From assembly GCA_035573715.1 (NCBI GenBank), contig DATLZZ010000010.1:215355-279354 (forward strand): a stretch of 64,000 bases of DNA, read 5' to 3'. Below, one piece after another: positions 6,498 to 60,907 of this stretch. Every line of letters starts with the position of its first letter. Within the stretch, counting starts at the first letter, position 1. The translations under genes were made by a program, and so were the position numbers. Origin of the DNA: Candidatus Xenobia bacterium. GTDB taxonomy: Bacteria > Acidobacteriota > Terriglobia > Acidiferrales > 2-02-FULL-67-57. A model generated the notes under the pieces. It was not told the origin of the DNA. It saw only the letters and a list, made by a program, of their open reading frames with translations, and did no database searches.

Positions 6498-7139
6498 CTA
6501 CCTGTTCCTCGGTTCAAAGGCCAGCGGACGGTCGAGCTCCAACTCGATGCGCGTCTTCTTTTGCAGCACCAGCGGTTTGCTGCCGCTGCTGAGCGCGCCG
6601 ACCAGCGCTCCCGCGCCAGCGCCGACACCCGCGCCGATGGCCGCCTCTTTTCCTCCGCCGGCGACCGCGCCAATAGCGGCGCCCGTGCCCGCGCCTACCC
6701 CGGCGCCGATGGCGGCGTTGCGCCCGCGGTTGCTGCCTTCAGCGCGGATCTCGCCTTCGTTGCTCACCTTCCTCTTCACGTTCTTCTCGCCGACCACGCC
6801 GACCACGGTGGCCACGATGGGCACTTTGTCCTTGCCGGTATCAATCGTTTCAAAGCGCAGCAGGAGGCGGCTCTTCTCGACGTGGGTCACACGCCCCTTG
6901 AGTTTGGCGCCGGCCTTGAGGTAGGCGCCGTTGCTGGCGTGGAGAGGCTCAATCGTGCGCGCTCCGAACTTCTTGCCCACTTTTGCTTTGCGCGCGTCGA
7001 GCTTGTCCTTCAGCTCCACCAGGAAGCGCGTGCCCGCCGGCACTTCCGTCAGCGACTCGTGCCCGGCGCGTACCGGCGCTGCCAGCAGGCTGAGGACGGC
7101 TACAAGTGCGGCGGCCAGCGTTCTCTTTGTCGTTCGCAT
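6498..7139 (-). CDS. secreted glycine-zipper protein (paralog 1 of 3)
   Basis: Signal peptide, beta-rich N-domain, AIGAGVGAGTGAAIGAVAGGG glycine-zipper segment. Paralogous to 11648-12256 and 28264-30177. Confidence 0.6.
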   Translation of the reverse strand: MRTTKRTLAAALVAVLSLLAAPVRAGHESLTEVPAGTRFLVELKDKLDARKAKVGKKFGARTIEPLHASNGAYLKAGAKLKGRVTHVEKSRLLLRFETIDTGKDKVPIVATVVGVVGEKNVKRKVSNEGEIRAEGSNRGRNAAIGAGVGAGTGAAIGAVAGGGKEAAIGAGVGAGAGALVGALSSGSKPLVLQKKTRIELELDRPLAFEPRNR

Positions 7140-8331: not shown

Positions 8332-9552
8332 CTAGTGGCTGCCACCCGGCTTGTTCGCCGCAGGATGGCCGGGGAAATGAACCGCCACGCCGCGCCAGCC
8401 GCTGTCGAGCGTCGCCGGCTCGCTGCGCAGCACGTAGCCGCTCAGACGCACCTCCACAGGATTCTTCTCGCCTCGTCCCTTGCCGAGCGCGCCGCCCGCG
8501 CCGTAGCCGTTGACCGGTAGCCGGACGGTGAGTTCGACGGGCTGCTGGGGCTCGTAGCGTGTTGGCGTCAGGAAGTAGGCGCCGTGGAAGCTGATGTTCT
8601 CCAGCTGCACCTGCTCCCGCAGGGCGCGGCCGTTGAGCCGCGTTTCGACCTCGACAGGCACCTGGGCGGCCATGCGCTGGCTCAGTCGGAGGCGGCGCGA
8701 GCCGACGCGTGTCTCGCCTCGCGCCACATCCATCACCATCCCTTCGGAAGCAGCCAGGGTGCGAGGGAATTCGCGTCGGGCCTGGCCGAGAATCTGGTCC
8801 ACCTCGTCGTCCGTGCGCCAGTGGTCGTGGTGGAAAAGGACAAGCTGCCTGACCCCGGCCTTCTTCGCCAGCCGCACCGCATCCTGCCAGGTGCCGTGGC
8901 CGACGCCGCGCTTGGCGCCGCGCAGCTCGTCGGCGAAATACTGAGCGTCGCAAACCAGCACGTCGGCGTCCCGAGAAAGCGCCACCAAAGCGTCGTCGAA
9001 TTCCGGCGCCCCGGGCTCGTGGTCGGTGGCGTAGACGATGGAGACGCCACCGCGATCGAGCCGGTAGGCCATCGAGCCGTCGGGATGGTTGAGCCGGCAG
9101 GTGCGGATGCGGGTGAGGCCGAGATAGTAGTCGGTCACCCACTCCAGTTCGCGCAGCGTGTAGGTGGCGTGGAGCTGGTCGAGCGGCTGCGGGAAAAACG
9201 GCGAGCGGAACAGGATGTCAAGCACGCCGCTGAGCGTGGCCGGCACGCTCTTGCCCGAGAGCGGCGGCCCGAAGAATTGCAGCGTGGTGTTGGCGTAGTA
9301 GAGCGGCTCGAAGAACGGCAGACCCTGGATGTGATCCCAGTGGTAGTGGCTGAGCAGGACGTTGACGTTGAGGTCAGCGCTGCGCCGCCTGACCAGTTCG
9401 TGGCCGAGGTCGCGGGCGCCGGTGCCGACGTCGAGGATAAAAATCTGGTCGCCGGTGCTAACCTCAAGGCAGGGCGTGTGGCCCCCATACCGCCACGCCC
9501 AGGGCTCCGGCGACGGGACTGAACCGCGCACTCCCCAGAAAGTCAGTTGCAC
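8332..9552 (-). CDS. MBL-fold metallo-hydrolase (PhnP/RNase Z-like) fused to C-terminal PilZ domain
   Basis: HxHxDH motif (SHYHWDH) and LTFWGVRGS N-terminus. C-terminal RxxxR (RLSQR) and NxSxxG (NISFHG) PilZ motifs. Start set at a GTG preceded by a GGGAGG Shine-Dalgarno. Confidence 0.75.
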   Translation of the reverse strand: MQLTFWGVRGSVPSPEPWAWRYGGHTPCLEVSTGDQIFILDVGTGARDLGHELVRRRSADLNVNVLLSHYHWDHIQGLPFFEPLYYANTTLQFFGPPLSGKSVPATLSGVLDILFRSPFFPQPLDQLHATYTLRELEWVTDYYLGLTRIRTCRLNHPDGSMAYRLDRGGVSIVYATDHEPGAPEFDDALVALSRDADVLVCDAQYFADELRGAKRGVGHGTWQDAVRLAKKAGVRQLVLFHHDHWRTDDEVDQILGQARREFPRTLAASEGMVMDVARGETRVGSRRLRLSQRMAAQVPVEVETRLNGRALREQVQLENISFHGAYFLTPTRYEPQQPVELTVRLPVNGYGAGGALGKGRGEKNPVEVRLSGYVLRSEPATLDSGWRGVAVHFPGHPAANKPGGSH

Positions 9553-11647: not shown

Positions 11648-12256
11648 TTACTGACTGATGGCCAGGTCTTCCTTCAGGCGGAAGCGCAGGCGGGTTTCAG
11701 CCGGGTAGCGGATGTCGCGCTGCCCGGTGAGCGCCGCGGCACCGGTACCGCTGCCCGCGCCCACGCCGGCGCCGATGGCCGCCCCCTTGCCGCCGCCGGC
11801 CAGGCCGCCGATCAAGGCGCCCAAGCCGGTGCCGCCGCCGATGAACAGCACGTTGCGCTTCAGTTTGCTGCCCTCGCGGCGGCCGGTGGTCGAGGTTTCG
11901 ACGTCATAGCTATCGCCGTCCACCTCGACCTCGGTCAGGGTCATAAACAGCCGGCCACTGCCCTTGAAGCGGCCGGAGGCCTCGGCGTCAACCACTTCGC
12001 CGGTGACCTCCGAGCCAGCCGGGATGATCACCTTGTCGCCCACCACCACGTCGTGGTCGAGGACGCCGGTGAAGTCATCGCCCGGCTCATTGGTCTTGGA
12101 GCTCAAGCTCTGCGTCAGCCGCACGGTGAGCTCCGTCCCCGCCGGCACAATCACCGGTTCTGGCCTGAGTACGTAGGTGGCTCCCACAATCAGCGACGCT
12201 GCGAGCAGCACCGCTGCCGTGGCCACCCAAAGGCTCTTGCCCTTAGGAATGCGCAT
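11648..12256 (-). CDS. secreted glycine-zipper protein (paralog 2 of 3)
   Basis: Signal peptide, GLGALIGGLAGGGKGAAIGAGVGAGSG zipper. Same architecture as 6498-7139. Confidence 0.6.
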   Translation of the reverse strand: MRIPKGKSLWVATAAVLLAASLIVGATYVLRPEPVIVPAGTELTVRLTQSLSSKTNEPGDDFTGVLDHDVVVGDKVIIPAGSEVTGEVVDAEASGRFKGSGRLFMTLTEVEVDGDSYDVETSTTGRREGSKLKRNVLFIGGGTGLGALIGGLAGGGKGAAIGAGVGAGSGTGAAALTGQRDIRYPAETRLRFRLKEDLAISQ

Positions 12257-12407
12257 GATTGCTACCTCCAGGCGACGTGTCGCCCGTTTCAAGCCTAAAC
12301 AGAGGCCTTCGAGCCCCGAAAAGGTTGTCCGTTATTTCCTAAGTGTTTTACTTGCAAGAGATTAGCTCAGAAATCGAGCATTTTCCTGTCCGTGAGCCGG
12401 TCGCGCC

Positions 12408-12530
12408 GTGCGGTTTTTGCGGTTTTTGCGGTTTTCGCGGTTTTTGCGGTTTTGCCGTTGTCCCAGAAGGCCGGAAAAATTACAACCAGAAAAAAAACAA
12501 CCGCAAAAACCGCAAAAACCGCAAAAACCG
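12408..12530. repeat. inverted array of tandem 9-mers (GCGGTTTTT x5 ... AAACCGCAA x4)
   Basis: Direct tandem 9-bp repeats on one arm and their reverse complement on the other arm, separated by an A-rich spacer. Lies immediately upstream of the glucosaminidase operon. Confidence 0.7.
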
Positions 12531-12555
12531 TAGACAAGCGGCGGCGGCTGTCGCT

Positions 12556-13116
12556 ATGGAAGACGTGGTTGAACCGATGAGCGACAACCAGGTGAAGCGA
12601 GAATCGAATCGAACCCAGGCCCGCGCCGCCGCGCTTCTGAATGACGACAAGGGGCGATTCCTGGCGGAACTGGCTCCGGCGGTGCAGCGGTTGGCGGCGC
12701 GCACCGGCCTGCCGGCGTCGGCCGTGCTCGCGCAAGCCATTCTGGAATCGAACTGGGGGCGATCGGCGCTGGCGCGGCAAGCCCACAATCTGTTTGGAAT
12801 CAAGGCGCGTCGCGGCGCGCGGGCTTCCGCCACGTTCAACACGACAGAGTACGAGGGCGGGGAGGCGCGGCGCGAGGCGGCGCGCTTCGCGGCCTACGCG
12901 AGCTACGAGGACTGCCTCGGCGACTACGCCCGGGTTCTCGCTCACCCGCGCTACTTGCGGGCGCGCCGCGTGGCCGCCAACCCGCTGGCGTTCGTGGTGG
13001 AGCTGCAGCGCGCCGGCTACGCCACCGATCCGCACTACGCGCACAAGCTGGCGCTGCTCATCCGCCGCTATCGCCTCACCCAGTACGACGTCCCGCGAAA
13101 GGAGCCCACGCCATGA
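12556..13116 (+). CDS. glucosaminidase-domain peptidoglycan hydrolase (FlgJ/endolysin-like), no signal peptide
   Basis: LAQAILESNWGRSALARQAHNLFGIKA glucosaminidase motif. AT-rich repeat-derived upstream ATG rejected as start. Confidence 0.65.
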   Translation: MEDVVEPMSDNQVKRESNRTQARAAALLNDDKGRFLAELAPAVQRLAARTGLPASAVLAQAILESNWGRSALARQAHNLFGIKARRGARASATFNTTEYEGGEARREAARFAAYASYEDCLGDYARVLAHPRYLRARRVAANPLAFVVELQRAGYATDPHYAHKLALLIRRYRLTQYDVPRKEPTP

Positions 13117-13550
13117 GTCTCAGTTTCGCCAATCGCCGCCTTGTCTTTCTCCTGCTTCTAACCTCCAGCCTCCTGCTTCCGGGCTGCGGCGACTTCGAGC
13201 GCAACGCCTACCGCACCCTCAAGGTCGCCAAAGTCGAATACGAGCTTCTGCAGGAGCACGCCGCGCGCGCCTACCTGGAGGGCCGGCTGACGGAGCCGCA
13301 GTGGGAGCGCTTCGCGGTGGCCGGCAACCGCTTCATCGCCGCGCACACCCTCGCGGCTGACCTGATGAAGACCTACCAGCAAGTGCGGCGCGCGGGTTCG
13401 TCGGAGGACGAGCGGGCGCGCCTCGAGGCGCGCATCAACGCCGCGCTGGCTCAGTTGCCGGTGCTGCTGGCCGACCTGCGGGCGCTGCTGGGCTCGTTCG
13501 ACTCCGGCGGCGCCGCGGCGGCCGATGAGAGTCGTCAATCGAGGAGGTAG
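13113..13550 (+). CDS. lipoprotein (lipobox LLPGC), helical
   Basis: Signal peptide plus lipobox. ATGA start/stop overlap with the upstream gene. Confidence 0.55.
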   Translation: MSLSFANRRLVFLLLLTSSLLLPGCGDFERNAYRTLKVAKVEYELLQEHAARAYLEGRLTEPQWERFAVAGNRFIAAHTLAADLMKTYQQVRRAGSSEDERARLEARINAALAQLPVLLADLRALLGSFDSGGAAAADESRQSRR

Positions 13551-13553
13551 CCC

Positions 13554-13751
13554 ATGGCCATCACCAAACGCGACATCGTTACCTGGGCAGAACTGATTCA
13601 GCTCATCTCGCAGATGCTGCTTGCCGGCGTCGCCGCGCTGAAAGATGACGAGCCGGTGGACTTCGACGCAGTCAAGATCGCGCTCACGCCCGAGGAGGCC
13701 GTGCGGCGCCTGCGCCCGGAGGGAACGGCGAAACTGGAAAAGGGAGAATAG
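13554..13751 (+). CDS. small hypothetical protein (65 aa)
   Basis: Tightly spaced within the operon (4-nt gaps). Coding-like GC3. Confidence 0.4.
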   Translation: MAITKRDIVTWAELIQLISQMLLAGVAALKDDEPVDFDAVKIALTPEEAVRRLRPEGTAKLEKGE

Positions 13752-13754
13752 CGA

Positions 13755-14288
13755 GTGACCACTGAAGTATTGGCAACCGAGCAAAGCAGGACGCCCGAGC
13801 GGCGTTACCTGAAGGCGACGCTGGCGGGCGCGGGCGGCATGCTGGCGCTGCTGTGGTTTCTGCTGGAGCAGCGCCCCGAGCTGGCGCAGCTTCTGCTGGA
13901 GCGCATCGTCATCGCCTGGGGACCGCAGTTCGTCATTCTGCTTCTCCTGTTCGGCTTTCTCTATCTGCTGGCCGACCGCTACGCGCCGCGACTCATCGCC
14001 GCCCAGCGGGAAACGGCGGTGGCCTTGCAAAGCCTGGCGCGCGCGGTCGAGCAGTTGGTGGCGCGGGAGAACTCGTTCCAGCGCGAGCAGGACGTGCTGC
14101 TGAACCACGTCGCCCGGCGCGTCGAAGCCATCCACAAGCTCCTCAACGGCCGTCTCCACCGACTGGCTCGCGCTTCTTCCGAGCCACCGCCGAAAAAGGC
14201 TCGCCCGCGTTCGGCACGGCCCAACCCGGGCCAGCGGTCCTCGAAGCCGGAGTTGGCAGTTGCAAATCACGTTCTTTCCTCTACTTGA
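13755..14288 (+). CDS. membrane protein (2 TM) with charged C-terminal tail
   Basis: Two hydrophobic helices (LAGAGGMLALLWFLL and VILLLLFGFLYLL). GTG start 4 nt after the previous stop. Confidence 0.5.
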   Translation: MTTEVLATEQSRTPERRYLKATLAGAGGMLALLWFLLEQRPELAQLLLERIVIAWGPQFVILLLLFGFLYLLADRYAPRLIAAQRETAVALQSLARAVEQLVARENSFQREQDVLLNHVARRVEAIHKLLNGRLHRLARASSEPPPKKARPRSARPNPGQRSSKPELAVANHVLSST

Positions 14289-14364
14289 CTCCCCTCCGCC
14301 TGCCCCCTACAATCTCCCTGTCGTTTGGGGTCGGGTTTCACCACAGAGGGCAGAGGAAACAACT

Positions 14365-15636
14365 TTGCGCATCACCTTTTGGGGGGTGCGAGGTTCTACT
14401 CCCACACCCGCGCGCCACACGTGGCGCTATGGGGGCAACACGCCGTGCGTCGAGCTGCGCCTGCCCGACCAACTGGTTTTGATTGACGCCGGCACCGGCA
14501 TCCGAGAGCTCGGCCAGCAGCTCCTCGCCGAAGCCCGCCCCGATTCGGCCGGTGCTCCGCCCAAGCCCATCAACGTCTCTCTGCTGTTCTCTCACTACCA
14601 CTGGGACCACATCCAGGGCCTACCGTTTTTCGCGCCCATCTATGCGCCCGGGAACACCGTTCGCCTTTACGGGCCGCGCTTCCGCGACGTCGCCGGCTCG
14701 TCGCTCTCGGCGGCGCTTCAAGCGCTGTTTTGCGCGCCGTTTTTCCCGGTGCTGGCCACCGACCTGCGCGCCGCCCATCCCATCGAAGAATTTGACGACA
14801 ACGCCAGCTTCTCGCTGGGCGATCTCCGGGTGCGCGCCTGCCGGGTCAATCACCCGCAGGGCTCGGTCGCCTATCGCTTCGAGCACGGCGGGGCTTCGGT
14901 CGTCTATGCGACCGACCACGAGCCGGGCAACGAGGAAATTGACCGGCGGCTGCGCAACTTCGCGCGCGGCGCCGACGTGCTTATCACCGACGCCCAGTAT
15001 TTCCCCGAGCAGCTTGTCGCCGAGCGCAAAGGCTGGGGCCACAGCTCGTGGCAGGCGGCCACCGAACTGGCGCGGGCGGCCGAGGTCAAGAACCTGATCC
15101 TCTTCCACCACGAGCCGACCCACAGCGACGAAGTGCTGGACGCGATTCTGGTTCGCGCCCGGGGGGCTTTTGCCAACACTCACTCGGCCACGGAAACGCT
15201 GGTGGTGGAGGTGCGCCGCCGGGAAGTGCTCTTCGCCAATCGCCCGGCGCGGCTCAGTCAGCGCGCCGACGTCCACCTGCCGGTCCACGTCGAGACCACG
15301 CAGGACGGCGCGCGGGTGCGGGAGGAGGCGTACCTGGCTAACCTCAGCTTCCACGGCGCCTATATCCTGAGCCCGCATCACTTCGAGCCCCAGCAGTCCA
15401 TCGAAATCGCCGTGCCGCTGCAGCCCGACCCGTCCGCCGCCACCGCTGCGCACCACGGGAAGGGAGCTCCGCCGGGAGAATTTCGCCTCAAAGGGGTGGT
15501 GCTGCGCACGGAGCCGCAGACGACCAACGGCCACTGGGAAGGCGTGGCGGTGATTTTCCCCGACGCCCAGGGCCGTGTCCCCGCCCAGCCGAAGGCGCCG
15601 CCCAAGCCCGGCCCCGACTCCGACACCACCTCGTAG
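14365..15636 (+). CDS. MBL-fold metallo-hydrolase (PhnP/RNase Z-like) fused to C-terminal PilZ domain (paralog 2)
   Basis: LRITFWGVRGS, SHYHWDH. PilZ motifs RLSQR and NLSFHG. TTG start with a GAGG Shine-Dalgarno. Confidence 0.75.
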   Translation: MRITFWGVRGSTPTPARHTWRYGGNTPCVELRLPDQLVLIDAGTGIRELGQQLLAEARPDSAGAPPKPINVSLLFSHYHWDHIQGLPFFAPIYAPGNTVRLYGPRFRDVAGSSLSAALQALFCAPFFPVLATDLRAAHPIEEFDDNASFSLGDLRVRACRVNHPQGSVAYRFEHGGASVVYATDHEPGNEEIDRRLRNFARGADVLITDAQYFPEQLVAERKGWGHSSWQAATELARAAEVKNLILFHHEPTHSDEVLDAILVRARGAFANTHSATETLVVEVRRREVLFANRPARLSQRADVHLPVHVETTQDGARVREEAYLANLSFHGAYILSPHHFEPQQSIEIAVPLQPDPSAATAAHHGKGAPPGEFRLKGVVLRTEPQTTNGHWEGVAVIFPDAQGRVPAQPKAPPKPGPDSDTTS

Positions 15637-15699
15637 GCCGCGACACCCCGCGCCGGTTTTTCTGCTAGACTAAGTGTTTGTTCGGAGGCAAGGGGTCCC

Positions 15700-15927
15700 A
15701 TGCGCGCCTATGTATTCGTCAACGTTAAGGCCGGGAAGGCCAAGGGGGTGGCAGGGAAGATCGCCGCGCTCAAAGGAGTGGTGCAGGCCGATCCCTGCTG
15801 GGGCACGCCCGACATCATTGCCGTCTGCGACGTCAAAAACGAGCGAGCGCTGAACGACCTCGTGTTCAACGAAATCTCCAAGCTCCCCGACGTTGAGCAC
15901 ACCGACACCCACATCACCCTCACCTAG
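15700..15927 (+). CDS. stand-alone Lrp/AsnC C-terminal (RAM) domain protein
   Basis: 75-aa protein resembling the ligand-binding domain of AsnC-family regulators (YVFVNVKAG ... DIIAVCDVKNERALNDLV). Confidence 0.5.
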   Translation: MRAYVFVNVKAGKAKGVAGKIAALKGVVQADPCWGTPDIIAVCDVKNERALNDLVFNEISKLPDVEHTDTHITLT

Positions 15928-15984
15928 TGCCGTTCCCATTACTCGGGTCCAGTGGCTCTTTACCCATGTCCCTCCGTGCCCACC

Positions 15985-16025
15985 TTGGAGAGCAGTCCCG
16001 ACGCAGACGGGACGAGTCGAGGGCT
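15985..16025. repeat. REP-like element copy (GAGCAGTCCCGACGCAGACGGGACGAGTCGAGGG)
   Basis: Near-identical architecture to 600-650. Confidence 0.55.
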
Positions 16026-16036
16026 CATCGGCGGCT

Positions 16037-16360
16037 TCAATCTTCTTCCCCCACTACACCGGCCTGCCATTCCTTCTGCACAGTGTCTCTGTAAACCAGC
16101 CAGCGGCCGCCGACGCGCCGGCCCGCCAACTGGCCCTCGTGGAGCCAGCGGTAAATCGTGTCGGGGGATTTCCCCAGGAGCTTCGCTGCGGCCACAGCCG
16201 AGATCAGCTCGCGCTTCTCCTGCTGGGCCAGCAGCGCGCGCGCCCTCTCGAACTGTGCGGACTTGGGCCGCTCTTCGTCCTTCGGCGGAAGCTTGGACGG
16301 CGGCGCAATCACCGCGAGCCTCTCCCCGTGGCCTGTCGCGCATCCATACTCGGCTCCCAT
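16037..16360 (-). CDS. HTH DNA-binding protein (excisionase/MerR-like)
   Basis: AAAKLLGKSPDTIYRWLHEGQLAGRRVGGRWLV helix-turn-helix. Start uncertain; overlaps the end of the Gam-like gene. Confidence 0.45.
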   Translation of the reverse strand: MGAEYGCATGHGERLAVIAPPSKLPPKDEERPKSAQFERARALLAQQEKRELISAVAAAKLLGKSPDTIYRWLHEGQLAGRRVGGRWLVYRDTVQKEWQAGVVGEED

Positions 16361-16998
16361 CGCTTTAGCGCCTCCCAGTTGAGTTCATAGAACCACTTCT
16401 CCCGTTGCTGCAACCGGACCCCGGCGCGCTGTAGCCTGCGACGCACTCGCGCCCCGGGCCCGTTCTTCCCCACGGCTTGGAGAAAGAACTGCCGCAAGGA
16501 GTCGCGATCGAGCTCCGTGCGGACGCGCAGGAACTGCTGGCCGGGGCGCCAATTGGCCAGAGCTCGCAAGGCGCGCGCTTCATCCTGGATGCTCACCGCG
16601 CGCGCCGTTCGATACCCCACGCGCCCAAACCGCAGCGTCCTTGACTTGCGCGCGTGCCCGTCGATCCGTGCCAACTCGTCGTGGCGGCGACAAAACTTCT
16701 CGATGGCCCTTTCCAGCCTCACCCGCTGGGACTCCAGCGGGGCCCGACGCGCGGAAATCTCCGATTCCAGTCGAGCCCGCGCCTCGGCCCCTGCTCTCTC
16801 GAGTGTGCCGAGTTGCAGGGTCAATTGCGCCAGTTGCAGGAGTGACTTCTCAACCTCCAACCAGCAGGAAACGGCCCCGCTCGCACGCGCCCTTGGCTTG
16901 CTTTGACCCGGGTGCGTGGCGCGGGGCTGGAAATGGTTCCAGGGGACGGGAAGGACTGGCTTTCGACTCGCCCGGCTACGGGAAGAAAGGGCTTGCAT
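16309..16998 (-). CDS. Mu Gam-like host-nuclease inhibitor family protein
   Basis: Coiled-coil N-region followed by KSRTLRFGRVGYRTARAVSIQDEARALRALANWRPGQQFLRVRTELDRDSLRQFF, which aligns with the Mu Gam core. Start uncertain. Confidence 0.55.
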   Translation of the reverse strand: MQALSSRSRASRKPVLPVPWNHFQPRATHPGQSKPRARASGAVSCWLEVEKSLLQLAQLTLQLGTLERAGAEARARLESEISARRAPLESQRVRLERAIEKFCRRHDELARIDGHARKSRTLRFGRVGYRTARAVSIQDEARALRALANWRPGQQFLRVRTELDRDSLRQFFLQAVGKNGPGARVRRRLQRAGVRLQQREKWFYELNWEALKRWEPSMDARQATGRGSR

Positions 16999-17031
16999 GT
17001 GACCCACCAATGAGCTACTATCGACTCGAAA

Positions 17032-17053
17032 GGTGTACACCTAACAGGTGTAC
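17032..17053. promoter_or_regulatory. candidate operator: perfect palindrome GGTGTACACC plus adjacent half-site AGGTGTAC
   Basis: Located in the 63-bp divergent intergenic region between the Gam-like gene and the cI-like repressor gene. Confidence 0.5.
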
Positions 17054-17061
17054 TTTGTCAA

Positions 17062-17832
17062 ATGGTTTCTGCGCGCGACAGTTGGCCAAGCAAAATCAAG
17101 CAGTTACGGGACTCGCTTGGCCTCTCGCAGGAGCAGTTGGCCCGCCGGCTTGAGGTAACCAAGAAGACGATTGCGGAATGGGAGCAGGCGCGGCAGGTAC
17201 CGAGCGCAGAGCGAGCTCTGCAACTGGCGCGGTTGGCCGCCCCGGGAGAGTTGCGTCGGTGGTTGATTCGGCAGGCGCTCGATCGGATCGGCGCCGATGA
17301 GGGTTTGCTTGAGGATGCCCTGGGCGCGCGACGGCGCGGCCGCCAGGCGCCGCTGCCGGTTGCCGGGTTGCGGGTAATTCCTTCCGCGGATCTGAGCGAC
17401 CGCTTTCGAGCGCTGGAGGGGCTGAGCGACTTTGTCCCGATTCCGTTGCTGCGGGACGCGGCGGCGGCGGGCTCACCGCGGGAAATTTCCGAGGAGGACA
17501 TCGAAGGCTACGCGATGATTCAATACGCGTGGTGCCCGAACCCGGCCGAGTTCACTTGCGTGCGGGTTCGCGGCGCTTCGATGTCGCCGATTCTGCTGGA
17601 TGGGGCGGTGGTGGCGATTGACCACTTGCAGCGCGACCCGCAGGCGCTGCACCAGAAAATGGTTGCCGCCCGCGTGGAGGATGGCGTGACCATCAAGTGG
17701 CTCAACCTCCAGCCCGACGGCTCTCTGCTCCTTGTCCCGGAGAACAAGAACTACCCTGCCATCCCGCTGCCGCGCACGCCCACAAACCCCATCGTGGGCC
17801 TGGTGGCCTGGTGGTGGAACCGACAGCGCTGA
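17062..17832 (+). CDS. phage cI/LexA-type repressor (XRE HTH plus S24 peptidase domain)
   Basis: N-terminal HTH (LRDSLGLSQEQLARRLEVTKKTIAEWE). C-terminal S24 domain with the Ser (GASMSP) and Lys (KWLNLQ) catalytic dyad context. Confidence 0.75.
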   Translation: MVSARDSWPSKIKQLRDSLGLSQEQLARRLEVTKKTIAEWEQARQVPSAERALQLARLAAPGELRRWLIRQALDRIGADEGLLEDALGARRRGRQAPLPVAGLRVIPSADLSDRFRALEGLSDFVPIPLLRDAAAAGSPREISEEDIEGYAMIQYAWCPNPAEFTCVRVRGASMSPILLDGAVVAIDHLQRDPQALHQKMVAARVEDGVTIKWLNLQPDGSLLLVPENKNYPAIPLPRTPTNPIVGLVAWWWNRQR

Positions 17833-17880: not shown

Positions 17881-18666
17881 ATGACCCGCTCGCGCCTTCC
17901 AGCACGTCGCAACGCCAAGCCTCTTCCGCCCGATGAACACCAGCTCCGGATCGCGCGGATCGTGCAGGAAGGCCTGCTACCGCCGCCGCTGACTTCGCTG
18001 CCCGACCTGGAAGTGGCGGCGCGCTTCATGCCGTCCCGCGGCGTGGGCGGCGACTTCTACGACTATTTCCCCATCGGCGCCGGCGGGCTGGGTCTCTATC
18101 TGGGCGACGTGCAAGGCAAGGGACTCGAGGCGGCGATGTACGCCCTGCTGGTGAGCGGGCTGATGCGGGGCCTGAACAAGACCGGCAACAAGCCCGCCAG
18201 CGTGATTGACATGCTCAACCGGCGCCTTTGCTTTCGCAACGTGCCGGGAAAATTCTGCTGTCTTGGGTACGCGGTAATCGACCGCGACGCCCGCCAGCTT
18301 TTCTTCGCCAACGCCGGCCTGCCGTTCCCGCTGTTGCAGCGCGGGGGCTCGTCCGAGCCGGTGCGCCTCACCGGCTCGCCGGTGGGGCTTTTCGACCCGT
18401 GCGAGTTCGACCAGGTCACCACGCCGCTTCTGCCGGGCGACCGCATTCTGTTCTACACCGACGGGCTGGGCGACGTGCTCGACCACGGTCGCGGTGGCGC
18501 CGAAGCCTACCTCTCCCGCTACCTCACCTCCCACCCCGACGCCTCCGCCACTGCGTTGGCGGACGGGCTGATGCGACGCCTCGCGCGCCGCCCCCGTCCT
18601 CTGCTCGACGACGCCACATTCATCGTCGTCCGTATGCTGGACTCTGATGGCGCCCGGCGGCTCTGA
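17881..18666 (+). CDS. PP2C-family (SpoIIE/RsbU-type) serine phosphatase
   Basis: GGDFYDY, GDVQGKG and FYTDGL motifs. Confidence 0.7.
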   Translation: MTRSRLPARRNAKPLPPDEHQLRIARIVQEGLLPPPLTSLPDLEVAARFMPSRGVGGDFYDYFPIGAGGLGLYLGDVQGKGLEAAMYALLVSGLMRGLNKTGNKPASVIDMLNRRLCFRNVPGKFCCLGYAVIDRDARQLFFANAGLPFPLLQRGGSSEPVRLTGSPVGLFDPCEFDQVTTPLLPGDRILFYTDGLGDVLDHGRGGAEAYLSRYLTSHPDASATALADGLMRRLARRPRPLLDDATFIVVRMLDSDGARRL

Positions 18667-53661: not shown

Positions 53662-53736
53662 TGGCTGGGGCGCCTGGATTCGAACCAGGACCTCTGGATT
53701 AACAGTCCAGCGTGCTGCCAGACGCACTCCGCCCCA
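53662..53736 (-). tRNA. tRNA-Asn (anticodon GTT), CCA encoded
   Basis: Cloverleaf: acceptor TGGGGCG/CGCCCCA, D-arm GTGC..GCAC, anticodon stem CTGGA/TCCAG with loop CTGTTAA, T-arm CCTGG TTCGAAT CCAGG, discriminator G plus CCA. Confidence 0.9.
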
Positions 53737-60571: not shown

Positions 60572-60907
60572 ATGGGGACGACCGGCACATATGCTTCCGG
60601 AATCGACCGGCGGGAAGATCACCGCACCACTTTTTTTGCCGAAGCGGAATATGAGTGGGGCGGCAACAAAATGCGCGCCCGCATCCTCAACCTCAGCCTG
60701 GGCGGAATGCTGATGGAGACGCGCGCCCCGCTTCCGGCGATGGCCCAGTTCGTCGCCACGCTGCATCTGGCGGAAGGGCCGCCGCTGGAAGCAATCTGCG
60801 TGGTGAAGCGCCTGGTGCCTGGCGTGGGCATGGGGGTGGAGTTCGTCGACCTCAAGCCCTCCGACCACATCCGCCTGCGGCGCATCGTCGAATCCCTGCC
60901 GCACTAG
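60572..60907 (+). CDS. stand-alone PilZ-domain protein
   Basis: RxxxR (REDHR) and NxSxGG (NLSLGG) motifs. Confidence 0.7.
   Translation: MGTTGTYASGIDRREDHRTTFFAEAEYEWGGNKMRARILNLSLGGMLMETRAPLPAMAQFVATLHLAEGPPLEAICVVKRLVPGVGMGVEFVDLKPSDHIRLRRIVESLPH

Follow-up and report, generated by a model that had tools for sequence, protein, structure and literature searches.

We describe here a gene found in a 64,000-nucleotide stretch of DNA (hereafter the window; NCBI GenBank assembly GCA_035573715.1, contig DATLZZ010000010.1, positions 215,355 to 279,354 of the forward strand) from a metagenome-assembled genome (MAG) labelled Candidatus Xenobia bacterium. The gene, MBL-PilZ copy 2, occupies positions 14365..15636 of the plus strand in the list of open reading frames (ORFs) and encodes a protein of 423 residues, which matches NCBI HXE75355.1 residue for residue from end to end, an 'MBL fold metallo-hydrolase' of Candidatus Xenobia bacterium encoded on a 338-kb MAG contig. 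Translation begins at a TTG codon at 14365, the equivalent codon being GTG in an 88%-identical ortholog, and a GAGGA-like ribosome-binding site was observed ahead of the start in both genes. Pfam assigns two domains to the product, a metallo-beta-lactamase (MBL) domain (Lactamase_B_2, E ~1e-21) and a PilZ domain (23.3-27 bits against a gathering threshold of 22.5), and the same pair was found in a paralog at 8332-9552. A previous sequence-only reading of this DNA had proposed an MBL-PilZ fusion at both places, quoting the motifs HYHWDH, RLSQR and NLSFHG; Pfam bears out the architecture in both copies, and all three motifs were found in place. Public databases hold only generic annotation for MBL-PilZ proteins, and many of the homologs carry the name PhnP from JGI. 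As judged from its sequence, copy 2 joins a metal-dependent phosphodiesterase that looks intact to a PilZ domain predicted to bind cyclic di-GMP (c-di-GMP), a fusion that is so far uncharacterised, and we place high confidence in this description at the level of the two domains.

The MBL-fold phosphodiesterase domain comprises residues 1-285 (14365..15219, plus strand), as delimited by invariant alignment columns, an AlphaFold2 (AF2) model and Foldseek. Its metal-binding motif, HYHWDH (HxHxDH; 14593..14610, plus strand), is preceded by Ser76 and together with it gives the [T/S]HxHxDH signature as SHYHWDH; position 76 was observed to be threonine in 90 of 120 homologs and serine in the other 30. 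Nine residues are invariant or nearly invariant in an alignment of 51 family members, namely D41, H77, H79, D81, H82, H163, D184, H226 and H248, and the same alignment shows a conserved N-terminal signature, FWGxRGS..P…RYGGNT, the first part of which reads FWGVRGS in copy 2. These nine metal and catalytic positions are intact in copy 2 and in 114 of the 120 homologs, and therefore the MBL domain looks catalytically competent.

The placement of this domain among known MBL enzymes was examined with structure and profile comparisons. A search with the full-length AF2 model (mean predicted local distance difference test (pLDDT) 86, predicted template modelling score (pTM) 0.72) ranked RNase Z, BA1088, YhfI, ZiPD, PhnP, PqqB and Apyc1 among the Foldseek matches, where the best target-normalised TM-scores belonged to YhfI (0.76-0.80) and BA1088 (0.75-0.77). 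The family profile aligns with BA1088 and YhfI continuously across the whole MBL core, whereas its alignment with RNase Z falls into two pieces that skip residues ~153-209 of the Bacillus subtilis enzyme (PDB 1Y44) and ~156-219 of Escherichia coli ZiPD (2CBN). We take the skipped segment to be the flexible arm that binds tRNA in published RNase Z structures. In RNase Z the arm is inserted between the histidine of motif III and the aspartate of motif IV; only 21 residues and two strands lie between H163 and D184 in copy 2, which leaves no room for an arm of the RNase Z type.

The NCBIfam models agree with this picture in that copy 2 scores far under the cut-off of every one of them. Its best matches are the RNase Z models TIGR02651 (71.8 bits, cut-off 292.95) and NF000801 (72.3 bits, cut-off 252), and NF041851, a model of cyclic nucleotide-degrading phosphodiesterases with a cut-off of 400, gives 57.5 bits for copy 2 and 68.7 bits for copy 1 in alignments that run end to end (positions 1-238 or 1-243 of the 253-position model). 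Taken together, sequence profile and predicted fold indicate that the domain is an arm-less ELAC/YhfI-like phosphodiesterase of an unnamed subfamily, and that it is not RNase Z, PhnP or Apyc1. The sequence-only reading had accepted that it would fail if the paralogs proved to be simple tRNA-processing RNase Z enzymes; with the arm missing and about 72 bits against cut-offs of 252-293, that objection does not apply. Identity with PhnP was rejected at 32.6 bits against a cut-off of 272 (TIGR03307), and no phosphonate-pathway match was seen among the annotated genes adjacent to copy 2 in the window and in related loci. Apyc1 (PF23023) was likewise rejected, our own Pfam scan giving no match even at E<=10 and precomputed tables only weak or faint ones, and membership of GntH or RNase BN was dropped because scores were far under cut-off or absent. 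No named NCBIfam family was found for stand-alone MBL proteins of the FWGVRGS type either; members from Terriglobales, Polyangiaceae, a cyanobacterium and Gemmatimonadota fall below every cut-off. PADLOC returned nothing for either paralog or for the proteins of the upstream cassette described below, and only generic helix-turn-helix (HTH) matches for their neighbours.

The PilZ beta-barrel domain follows at residues 296-400 (15250..15564, plus strand) and was identified by Pfam, by AF2 with Foldseek and by profile search. PF07238 scores 23.3-23.6 bits with the full protein and 27 bits with the isolated domain, above the threshold of 22.5, and 24 of the 27 C-terminal domains taken from the family match it, the best E being 2e-12. 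When a profile of these C-terminal domains was compared with PDB sequences, the top six matches were all PilZ proteins (BcsA, XAC1133-type PilZ and MotI). The AF2 model of the domain alone (pLDDT 84) has six strands in a beta-barrel fold, and its first 33 Foldseek matches in the PDB are all PilZ, including BcsA, MotI, Alg44, YcgR, MapZ, PlzA, VCA0042 and MrkH.

Both c-di-GMP motifs that the sequence-only reading had pointed out are intact in this domain and lie at canonical spacing. The RxxxR motif is RLSQR at residues 296-300 (15250..15264, plus strand), and the [D/N]hSxxG motif is NLSFHG at residues 326-331 (15340..15357, plus strand) with leucine at the h position, which fits the refined definition of Galperin and Chou (10.1101/814665). 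Among the 120 best homologs, R296 is kept in 111, R300 in 115, aspartate or asparagine at position 326 in 110, S328 in 103 (threonine in eight more) and G331 in 119. RxxxR starts four residues after the last MBL strand, where pLDDT drops below 50 in the full-length model, and therefore this segment is read as a flexible interdomain linker. From these features we infer that the PilZ domain of copy 2 probably binds c-di-GMP.

The paralog, MBL-PilZ copy 1, lies at 8332..9552 on the minus strand, as found from the ORF list, Pfam and pairwise comparison; its exact start is uncertain, and the ORF runs on to 9642. Over 403 residues copies 1 and 2 share 47% identity (E 6e-128), well above what chance would give. 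The matching architecture noted in the sequence-only reading holds, with the correction that copy 1 is on the minus strand so that the copies point apart. In a neighbor-joining tree copy 2 groups with homologs P0002, P0004, P0005 and P0006, and copy 1 with P0020, P0016 and P0015. P0006 and P0015 share one contig of another MAG, one in each paralog clade, and the duplication is therefore older than the divergence of the organisms concerned, just as the earlier suggestion of an old duplication with both copies retained would have it. Two further genes of the window may be mentioned here: a glycine-zipper (YMGG-like) gene lies near each paralog (6498-7139 and 11648-12292, both on the minus strand), each encoding an apparent N-terminal signal sequence when read by eye and the second also giving a weak TrbI-like match. 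A third PilZ gene, encoding a stand-alone PilZ protein of 111 residues (Pfam E 8e-10), is present at 60572-60907 on the plus strand.

A homology search returned 7951 matches at E<=1e-5, of which many involve only the MBL domain, while all of the approximately 120 best-scoring homologs carry PilZ-type motifs. The PilZ-domain profile was also run against 1.84 billion representatives, where it recovered mostly fragments and generic stand-alone PilZ proteins and gave no reliable count of fusions. We analyzed 82 loci, made up of 80 loci from GTDB species representatives and two others (L001 and L002). The fusion of 380-430 residues was found in 33 of them, almost all from Acidobacteriota, and a stand-alone MBL protein of ~272 residues in the other 49, from Terriglobales, Bryobacterales, Myxococcota, one cyanobacterium and Gemmatimonadota. 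A second fusion architecture, in which a spacer of 70-140 residues of unassigned fold separates MBL from PilZ, was observed in homologs P0028, P0030, P0032, P0034 and P0039. In addition, a separate PilZ gene stands 0.3-4 kb upstream of the stand-alone MBL gene in 10 of the 49 loci (L035, L040, L047, L052, L053, L055, L059, L060, L070 and L075) and in none of the 33 fusion loci. These PilZ genes are orthologous, encode 107-264 residues with the canonical motifs as RAARR and DVSARG and, in the eight tested, give Pfam E values of 1e-8 to 1e-11; the pairing comes from a single syntenic lineage and may hint at a functional partnership, with which it is compatible.

Neighboring genes differ between the clades of the family. 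In the Acidoferrales clade a divergently transcribed CDF cation-efflux gene adjoins the fusion (25 of 33 loci), with DUF1015 and STAS genes also present, and copy 1 and this large clade share contexts that are not phage-related (CDF transporter, DUF1015 and a radical SAM gene nearby), whereas the stand-alone MBL forms adjoin anthranilate synthase I and glutamate dehydrogenase genes. We considered these family-wide neighbors as a clue to the substrate and set them aside as clade-specific synteny that is uninformative on function. The labels of the source genomes also deserve comment. The source MAG is assigned to Candidatus Xenobia of the phylum Vulcanimicrobiota, all labelled relatives of the gene and of its syntenic block being Acidobacteriota MAGs, so the Xenobia label may reflect a binning or classification issue; individual homologs labelled Micrarchaeaceae archaeon, Patescibacteria and Bacteroidota are probably binning errors.

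Directly upstream of copy 2, on the same strand, lies a four-gene cassette (12343..14288), and between the two a sigma-70-type promoter-like site, TTGACT-17-TACAAT, was found by motif scan at 14285..14313 (plus strand), 52 nt upstream of the start codon. The -35 hexamer shares bases with the stop codon that closes the upstream ORF at 14288, and the 5' untranslated region of copy 2 is only ~45 nt. This is the sole promoter-like match in 12000-16200; scans of the window and of loci L001 and L002 each gave a single match in 3-4 kb where 0.2 are expected. All seven distinct related loci carry an equivalent near-consensus site, TTGAC(N)-17/18-TA(T/C)AAT, with 10-12 of 12 matches and at 52-138 nt upstream of the MBL-PilZ start, and the intergenic sequence around it has diverged between loci. 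To judge from this positional conservation, copy 2 clearly has a promoter of its own. Independent promoters with no co-expression had been named beforehand as an outcome that would count against the sequence-only reading, and the site in seven of seven loci supplies half of it. No terminator-like site was found between the cassette and the gene (14200-14365), and therefore read-through from the cassette could occur. A single transcription unit would show no internal promoter and a conserved order and orientation of its genes, and the sequence does not present these features. An Rfam scan of the whole window matched only a tRNA at 53665-53736 and gave neither a riboswitch nor another kind of RNA element 5' of the gene.

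The cassette was delimited by the Pfam Glucosaminidase family, by PHROG endolysin families and by synteny. Its genes, all on the plus strand, encode an endolysin-type glucosaminidase (ORF 12343-13116), a lipobox protein (13113-13550), a protein of 65 residues (13554-13751) and a protein with two transmembrane segments and a coiled coil (13755-14288), these last features being read by eye from the translation. The sequence-only reading had placed copy 2 co-oriented with this cassette and 77 nt downstream of it; the co-orientation is correct and the spacer is 76 nt. Between the glycine-zipper gene and the glucosaminidase gene lies an inverted pair of 9-bp tandem arrays, (TGCGGTTTT)x5 at 12409-12453 and (AACCGCAAA)x3.6 at 12499-12530, and ORF 12343-13116 reads through them (CGFCGFCGF.., NRKNRKNRK). 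As the glucosaminidase orthologs have 161-171 residues, translation of this gene probably begins around 12560-12600, and the arrays might serve the cassette as an operator or as a controlling hairpin. The N-terminus of the glucosaminidase, read by eye, suggests no signal peptide, and a holin-like gene lies beside the cassette in locus L086. Because of the PHROG endolysin matches, the 161-171-residue orthologs and this holin-like neighbor, we regard the cassette as one that, on sequence grounds, really is lysis-like.

The arrangement around copy 2 was observed to be conserved among its closer relatives only. At 44-88% identity the whole block is syntenic within the lineage and runs from the glucosaminidase, lipobox, 65-residue and two-transmembrane coiled-coil genes through MBL-PilZ and a RAM-domain gene to an HTH_17 gene and a Mu Gam-like gene on the opposite strand and a CI-like HTH+S24 gene, whereas none of the 80 loci of the wider family (37-46% identity) has a glucosaminidase cassette or a downstream RAM-domain gene. 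In the window and in L083 the cassette immediately precedes MBL-PilZ in the same orientation, and so it does in L001 except that a DUF1264 gene intervenes; L084 and L085, where MBL-PilZ identity is 48-54%, show its last gene at the edge of the contig. In L002 the glucosaminidase and the membrane protein are absent, and in L086 the cassette is inverted ~3 kb away. The linkage is conserved across a narrow lineage and is not confined to one genome.

Downstream of copy 2, at a distance of 63 nt, a gene at 15700..15927 (plus strand) encodes a stand-alone AsnC/Lrp ligand-binding (RAM) domain of 75 residues (Pfam AsnC_trans_reg, E 3e-11). It follows immediately in the window, L001, L002, L084 and L085, with a spacing of 32-183 nt in four of five loci and no promoter-like site between the two genes in the window, and on this evidence it is possibly the likelier co-transcribed partner of MBL-PilZ. 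Beyond it, Pfam and PHROGs identify an HTH_17 excisionase-like gene (16037-16360, minus strand), a Mu Gam-like gene (16309-17040, minus strand) and a CI-like HTH+S24 repressor gene (17062-17832, plus strand). L002, L084, L085 and L086 have this block (16037..17832) after MBL-PilZ, L001 and L087 have a part of it, and it is kept in MAGs whose MBL-PilZ orthologs are only 44-63% identical to copy 2. No phage structural genes were found in the window, and L002 has a terminase gene 6.5 kb upstream. Judged by gene content, the block and the endolysin-type cassette together look like a domesticated phage-derived island. Directly after the CI-like repressor gene there is a SpoIIE/PP2C phosphatase gene (17881-18666, plus strand), which is duplicated in L084 (3995-5560), and a STAS (anti-sigma antagonist) gene occurs near MBL-PilZ in L002, L083 and 11 of the 33 fusion loci; these genes hint at a partner-switching module in the neighborhood.

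We lean towards the view that copy 2 is a c-di-GMP-gated phosphodiesterase of a small nucleotide phosphodiester that is expressed from its own promoter. The product would be a cytoplasmic two-domain enzyme in which an arm-less ELAC/YhfI-like phosphodiesterase with a binuclear metal center is joined to a c-di-GMP-binding PilZ barrel. Binding of c-di-GMP by the arginines of RxxxR in the linker and by the [D/N]hSxxG strand would order the linker, the barrel would then re-dock on the catalytic domain or on its dimer interface, and this re-docking would switch phosphodiester hydrolysis on or off. The dimer interface is proposed as a docking site because relatives in this MBL branch are homodimers (PMC9117128). 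The gene would be transcribed from its sigma-70-type promoter, probably together with the downstream 75-residue RAM-domain gene. That the protein is a regulated phosphodiesterase at all appears somewhat probable from its sequence. As substrate we would expect a small nucleotide phosphodiester rather than pre-tRNA, with a cyclic mononucleotide as the leading candidate, a tentative proposal made by analogy with enzymes of similar fold. YhfI prefers cyclic AMP and cyclic GMP (cAMP and cGMP; PMC9117128), Rv1339 and CpdA are cAMP phosphodiesterases (PMC9117128, PMC9293780), and Rv1339, CpdA and YhfI have been classed together as 'atypical class-II PDEs' sharing the [T/S]HxHxDH signature (PMC9293780).

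Several observations weigh against this interpretation. The [T/S]HxHxDH signature occurs also in RNase Z, and the metal ligands are common to the whole MBL phosphodiesterase branch, so that neither is discriminating. All NCBIfam scores fall short of their cut-offs, including that of the cyclic-nucleotide phosphodiesterase model, and the substrate class consequently rests on fold neighbors only. On the PilZ side, the Pfam score of copy 2 is only marginally above threshold, and in both models hardly more than one turn (3-4 residues) is left of the long C-terminal helix of canonical PilZ, ahead of a disordered proline-rich tail; PilZ-related domains without a long C-terminal helix have been described (10.1101/814665). 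That synteny with the lysis-like cassette and with the Gam/CI-like block is kept within the lineage hints at a functional context that the proposed model leaves unexplained. Furthermore, a regular-expression scan of the ORFs found no GGDEF or EAL gene in the window.

The context of the gene invites a different explanation, in which the operon of glucosaminidase, lipoprotein and membrane protein ends with copy 2 as its final cistron, which would couple cell-wall remodelling or regulated autolysis to c-di-GMP, much as the sequence-only reading had suggested. The co-oriented cassette with its 76-nt spacer and no terminator-like site in 14200-14365, its recurrence in whole or by its last gene in the window, L001, L083 and the edges of L084 and L085 in spite of an MBL-PilZ identity of 48-54% in the last two, and its lysis-like make-up (an endolysin-type glucosaminidase without a signal peptide by eye, and the holin-like neighbor in L086) all favor such an operon, but in seven of seven loci a sigma-70-like promoter, conserved in position, stands between cassette and gene. 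The order is also interrupted by the DUF1264 insertion in L001, the glucosaminidase and the membrane protein are missing from L002, and co-transcription is impossible in L086, where the cassette is inverted ~3 kb off. Copy 1 and the 80 loci of the wider family lack the cassette, and a constitutive-looking promoter would be ill-suited to a lysis operon that needs silence. We therefore consider that copy 2 is probably not an obligate part of a lysis-like operon, the operon explanation as a whole being unlikely, and that the suggested cell-wall link is weakly supported: the same-strand cassette speaks for it and the promoter and the broken or absent linkage elsewhere against it. The block on the other side of the gene could instead claim copy 2 as a functional part of the phage-derived island, where it would serve as a DNA or RNA nuclease or as an Apyc1-like degrader of immune cyclic nucleotides under c-di-GMP control. 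MBL-PilZ is followed by the block in all related loci long enough to show it, PF23023 (Anti-Pycsar_Apyc1) appears weakly in precomputed Pfam tables, Apyc1 is among the Foldseek matches, PHROG 392, a metal-dependent hydrolase family, matches with E 2.5e-11, and L002 has its terminase gene. This explanation is nevertheless improbable, as PF23023 is absent from our own scan at E<=10, PADLOC has no match, copy 1 and the Acidoferrales clade reside in non-phage contexts and the window is without phage structural genes.

Two further explanations concern the reaction itself. The MBL domain might cleave c-di-GMP or its product pGpG, with PilZ as a substrate-capture or feedback sensor, which would make the family a third, MBL-type class of c-di-GMP phosphodiesterase. 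Such a role would suit a predicted nucleotide phosphodiesterase fold joined by a four-residue linker to a c-di-GMP-binding domain, the association of this MBL subfamily with PilZ both in one gene neighborhood and in two kinds of fusion, and a window in which the regular-expression scan detects no EAL or HD-GYP gene. However, the nearest MBL relatives recovered (RNase Z, YhfI/BA1088, PhnP and Apyc1) are not described as such hydrolases, and MBL enzymes in general are not known to hydrolyze c-di-GMP or pGpG, although no literature search was aimed at this point. PilZ binds c-di-GMP tightly and is not known to pass its ligand to a catalytic site, and proteins of this MBL subfamily are widespread as stand-alone enzymes that lack PilZ; we accordingly rate this possibility as quite unlikely. 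That both paralogs are ordinary RNase Z-type enzymes of tRNA 3' processing with an extra domain seems very improbable. RNase Z structures do top the sequence and Foldseek matches and RNase Z models score best in NCBIfam, but 72 bits is far from cut-offs of 252 and 293, the alignments skip residues ~153-209 or ~156-219 with 21 residues between H163 and D184 leaving the arm no room, and two PilZ-bearing paralogs would be untypical of a housekeeping enzyme.

A comparison with characterized systems helps to place the gated phosphodiesterase that we favor. Copy 2 shares with the PilZ receptors PlzD/VCA0042, YcgR, MotI, BcsA and Alg44 the six-stranded barrel and, canonically spaced, the RxxxR and [D/N]hSxxG motifs. 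The proposed mechanism follows the logic of the 'c-di-GMP switch' known from PlzD and YcgR, where RxxxR sits in the interdomain linker, a flexible segment as in copy 2, and of the cellulose synthase BcsA, which is gated by its own PilZ domain, covalently attached to the catalytic domain as it is here. Copy 2 differs from these receptors in its partner, an MBL-fold phosphodiesterase, in its C-terminal helix of about one turn, and in that its c-di-GMP binding is predicted only. On the catalytic side, YhfI and BA1088 (PDB 6KNS and 1ZKP) resemble copy 2 with TM-scores of 0.75-0.80, the same metal ligands and no flexible arm, but the identity is 17-20%, the FWGVRGS..RYGGNT signature is specific to the subfamily of copy 2, and PilZ is added in copy 2. 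Rv1339 and the CpdA of Corynebacterium (NF041851) have [T/S]HxHxDH in common with copy 2, which aligns end to end with their model; they are single-domain proteins, and the MBL-PilZ proteins, at 57.5-69 bits against 400, fall outside that equivalog. RNase Z (ElaC/ZiPD; 1Y44, 2CBN) gives the highest sequence-profile scores and shares the metal motifs and an HST-like 'GHSSW' loop, whereas its flexible-arm exosite is absent from copy 2 and PilZ is present only in the latter. Apyc1 (PDB 7U2R and 7U2S; Foldseek ranks 31 and 34) has the MBL class-II-like fold and HxHxDH in common with copy 2, which is much larger, has two domains and belongs to a family of mostly chromosomal, non-phage contexts.

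PilZ is the classic c-di-GMP receptor, and its known enzyme partners are mainly glycosyltransferases and signalling domains. No paper on an MBL-PilZ fusion turned up in literature searches that paired PilZ with metallo-beta-lactamase, MBL or Lactamase_B_2, and an MBL partner is not among the PilZ fusions listed in a review of the domain (10.1101/814665). The position of the second paralog beside a lysis-like cassette mostly reflects ordinary paralogy and lineage-specific synteny, and the link of copy 2 to cell-wall remodelling is weak. A wider proposal, that MBL-PilZ proteins form a new class of c-di-GMP output which gates the destruction of another messenger (cAMP, cGMP or another cyclic nucleoside monophosphate) or of c-di-GMP or pGpG itself, that cross-talk between second messengers is thereby hard-wired in Acidobacteriota and soil bacteria related to them, and that in the lineage of copy 2 one paralog was recruited into a conserved phage-derived lysis and repressor island, is doubtful in our view. 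Copy 2 is tractable, being soluble and made of two domains with clear point-mutant controls and a stand-alone MBL relative for comparison. The family is concentrated in Acidobacteriota, a dominant but little-studied soil phylum. A PilZ-gated MBL phosphodiesterase, if true, would extend the outputs of c-di-GMP to the hydrolysis of nucleotides or phosphodiesters, and it could reveal that c-di-GMP and cyclic mononucleotide signalling communicate directly.

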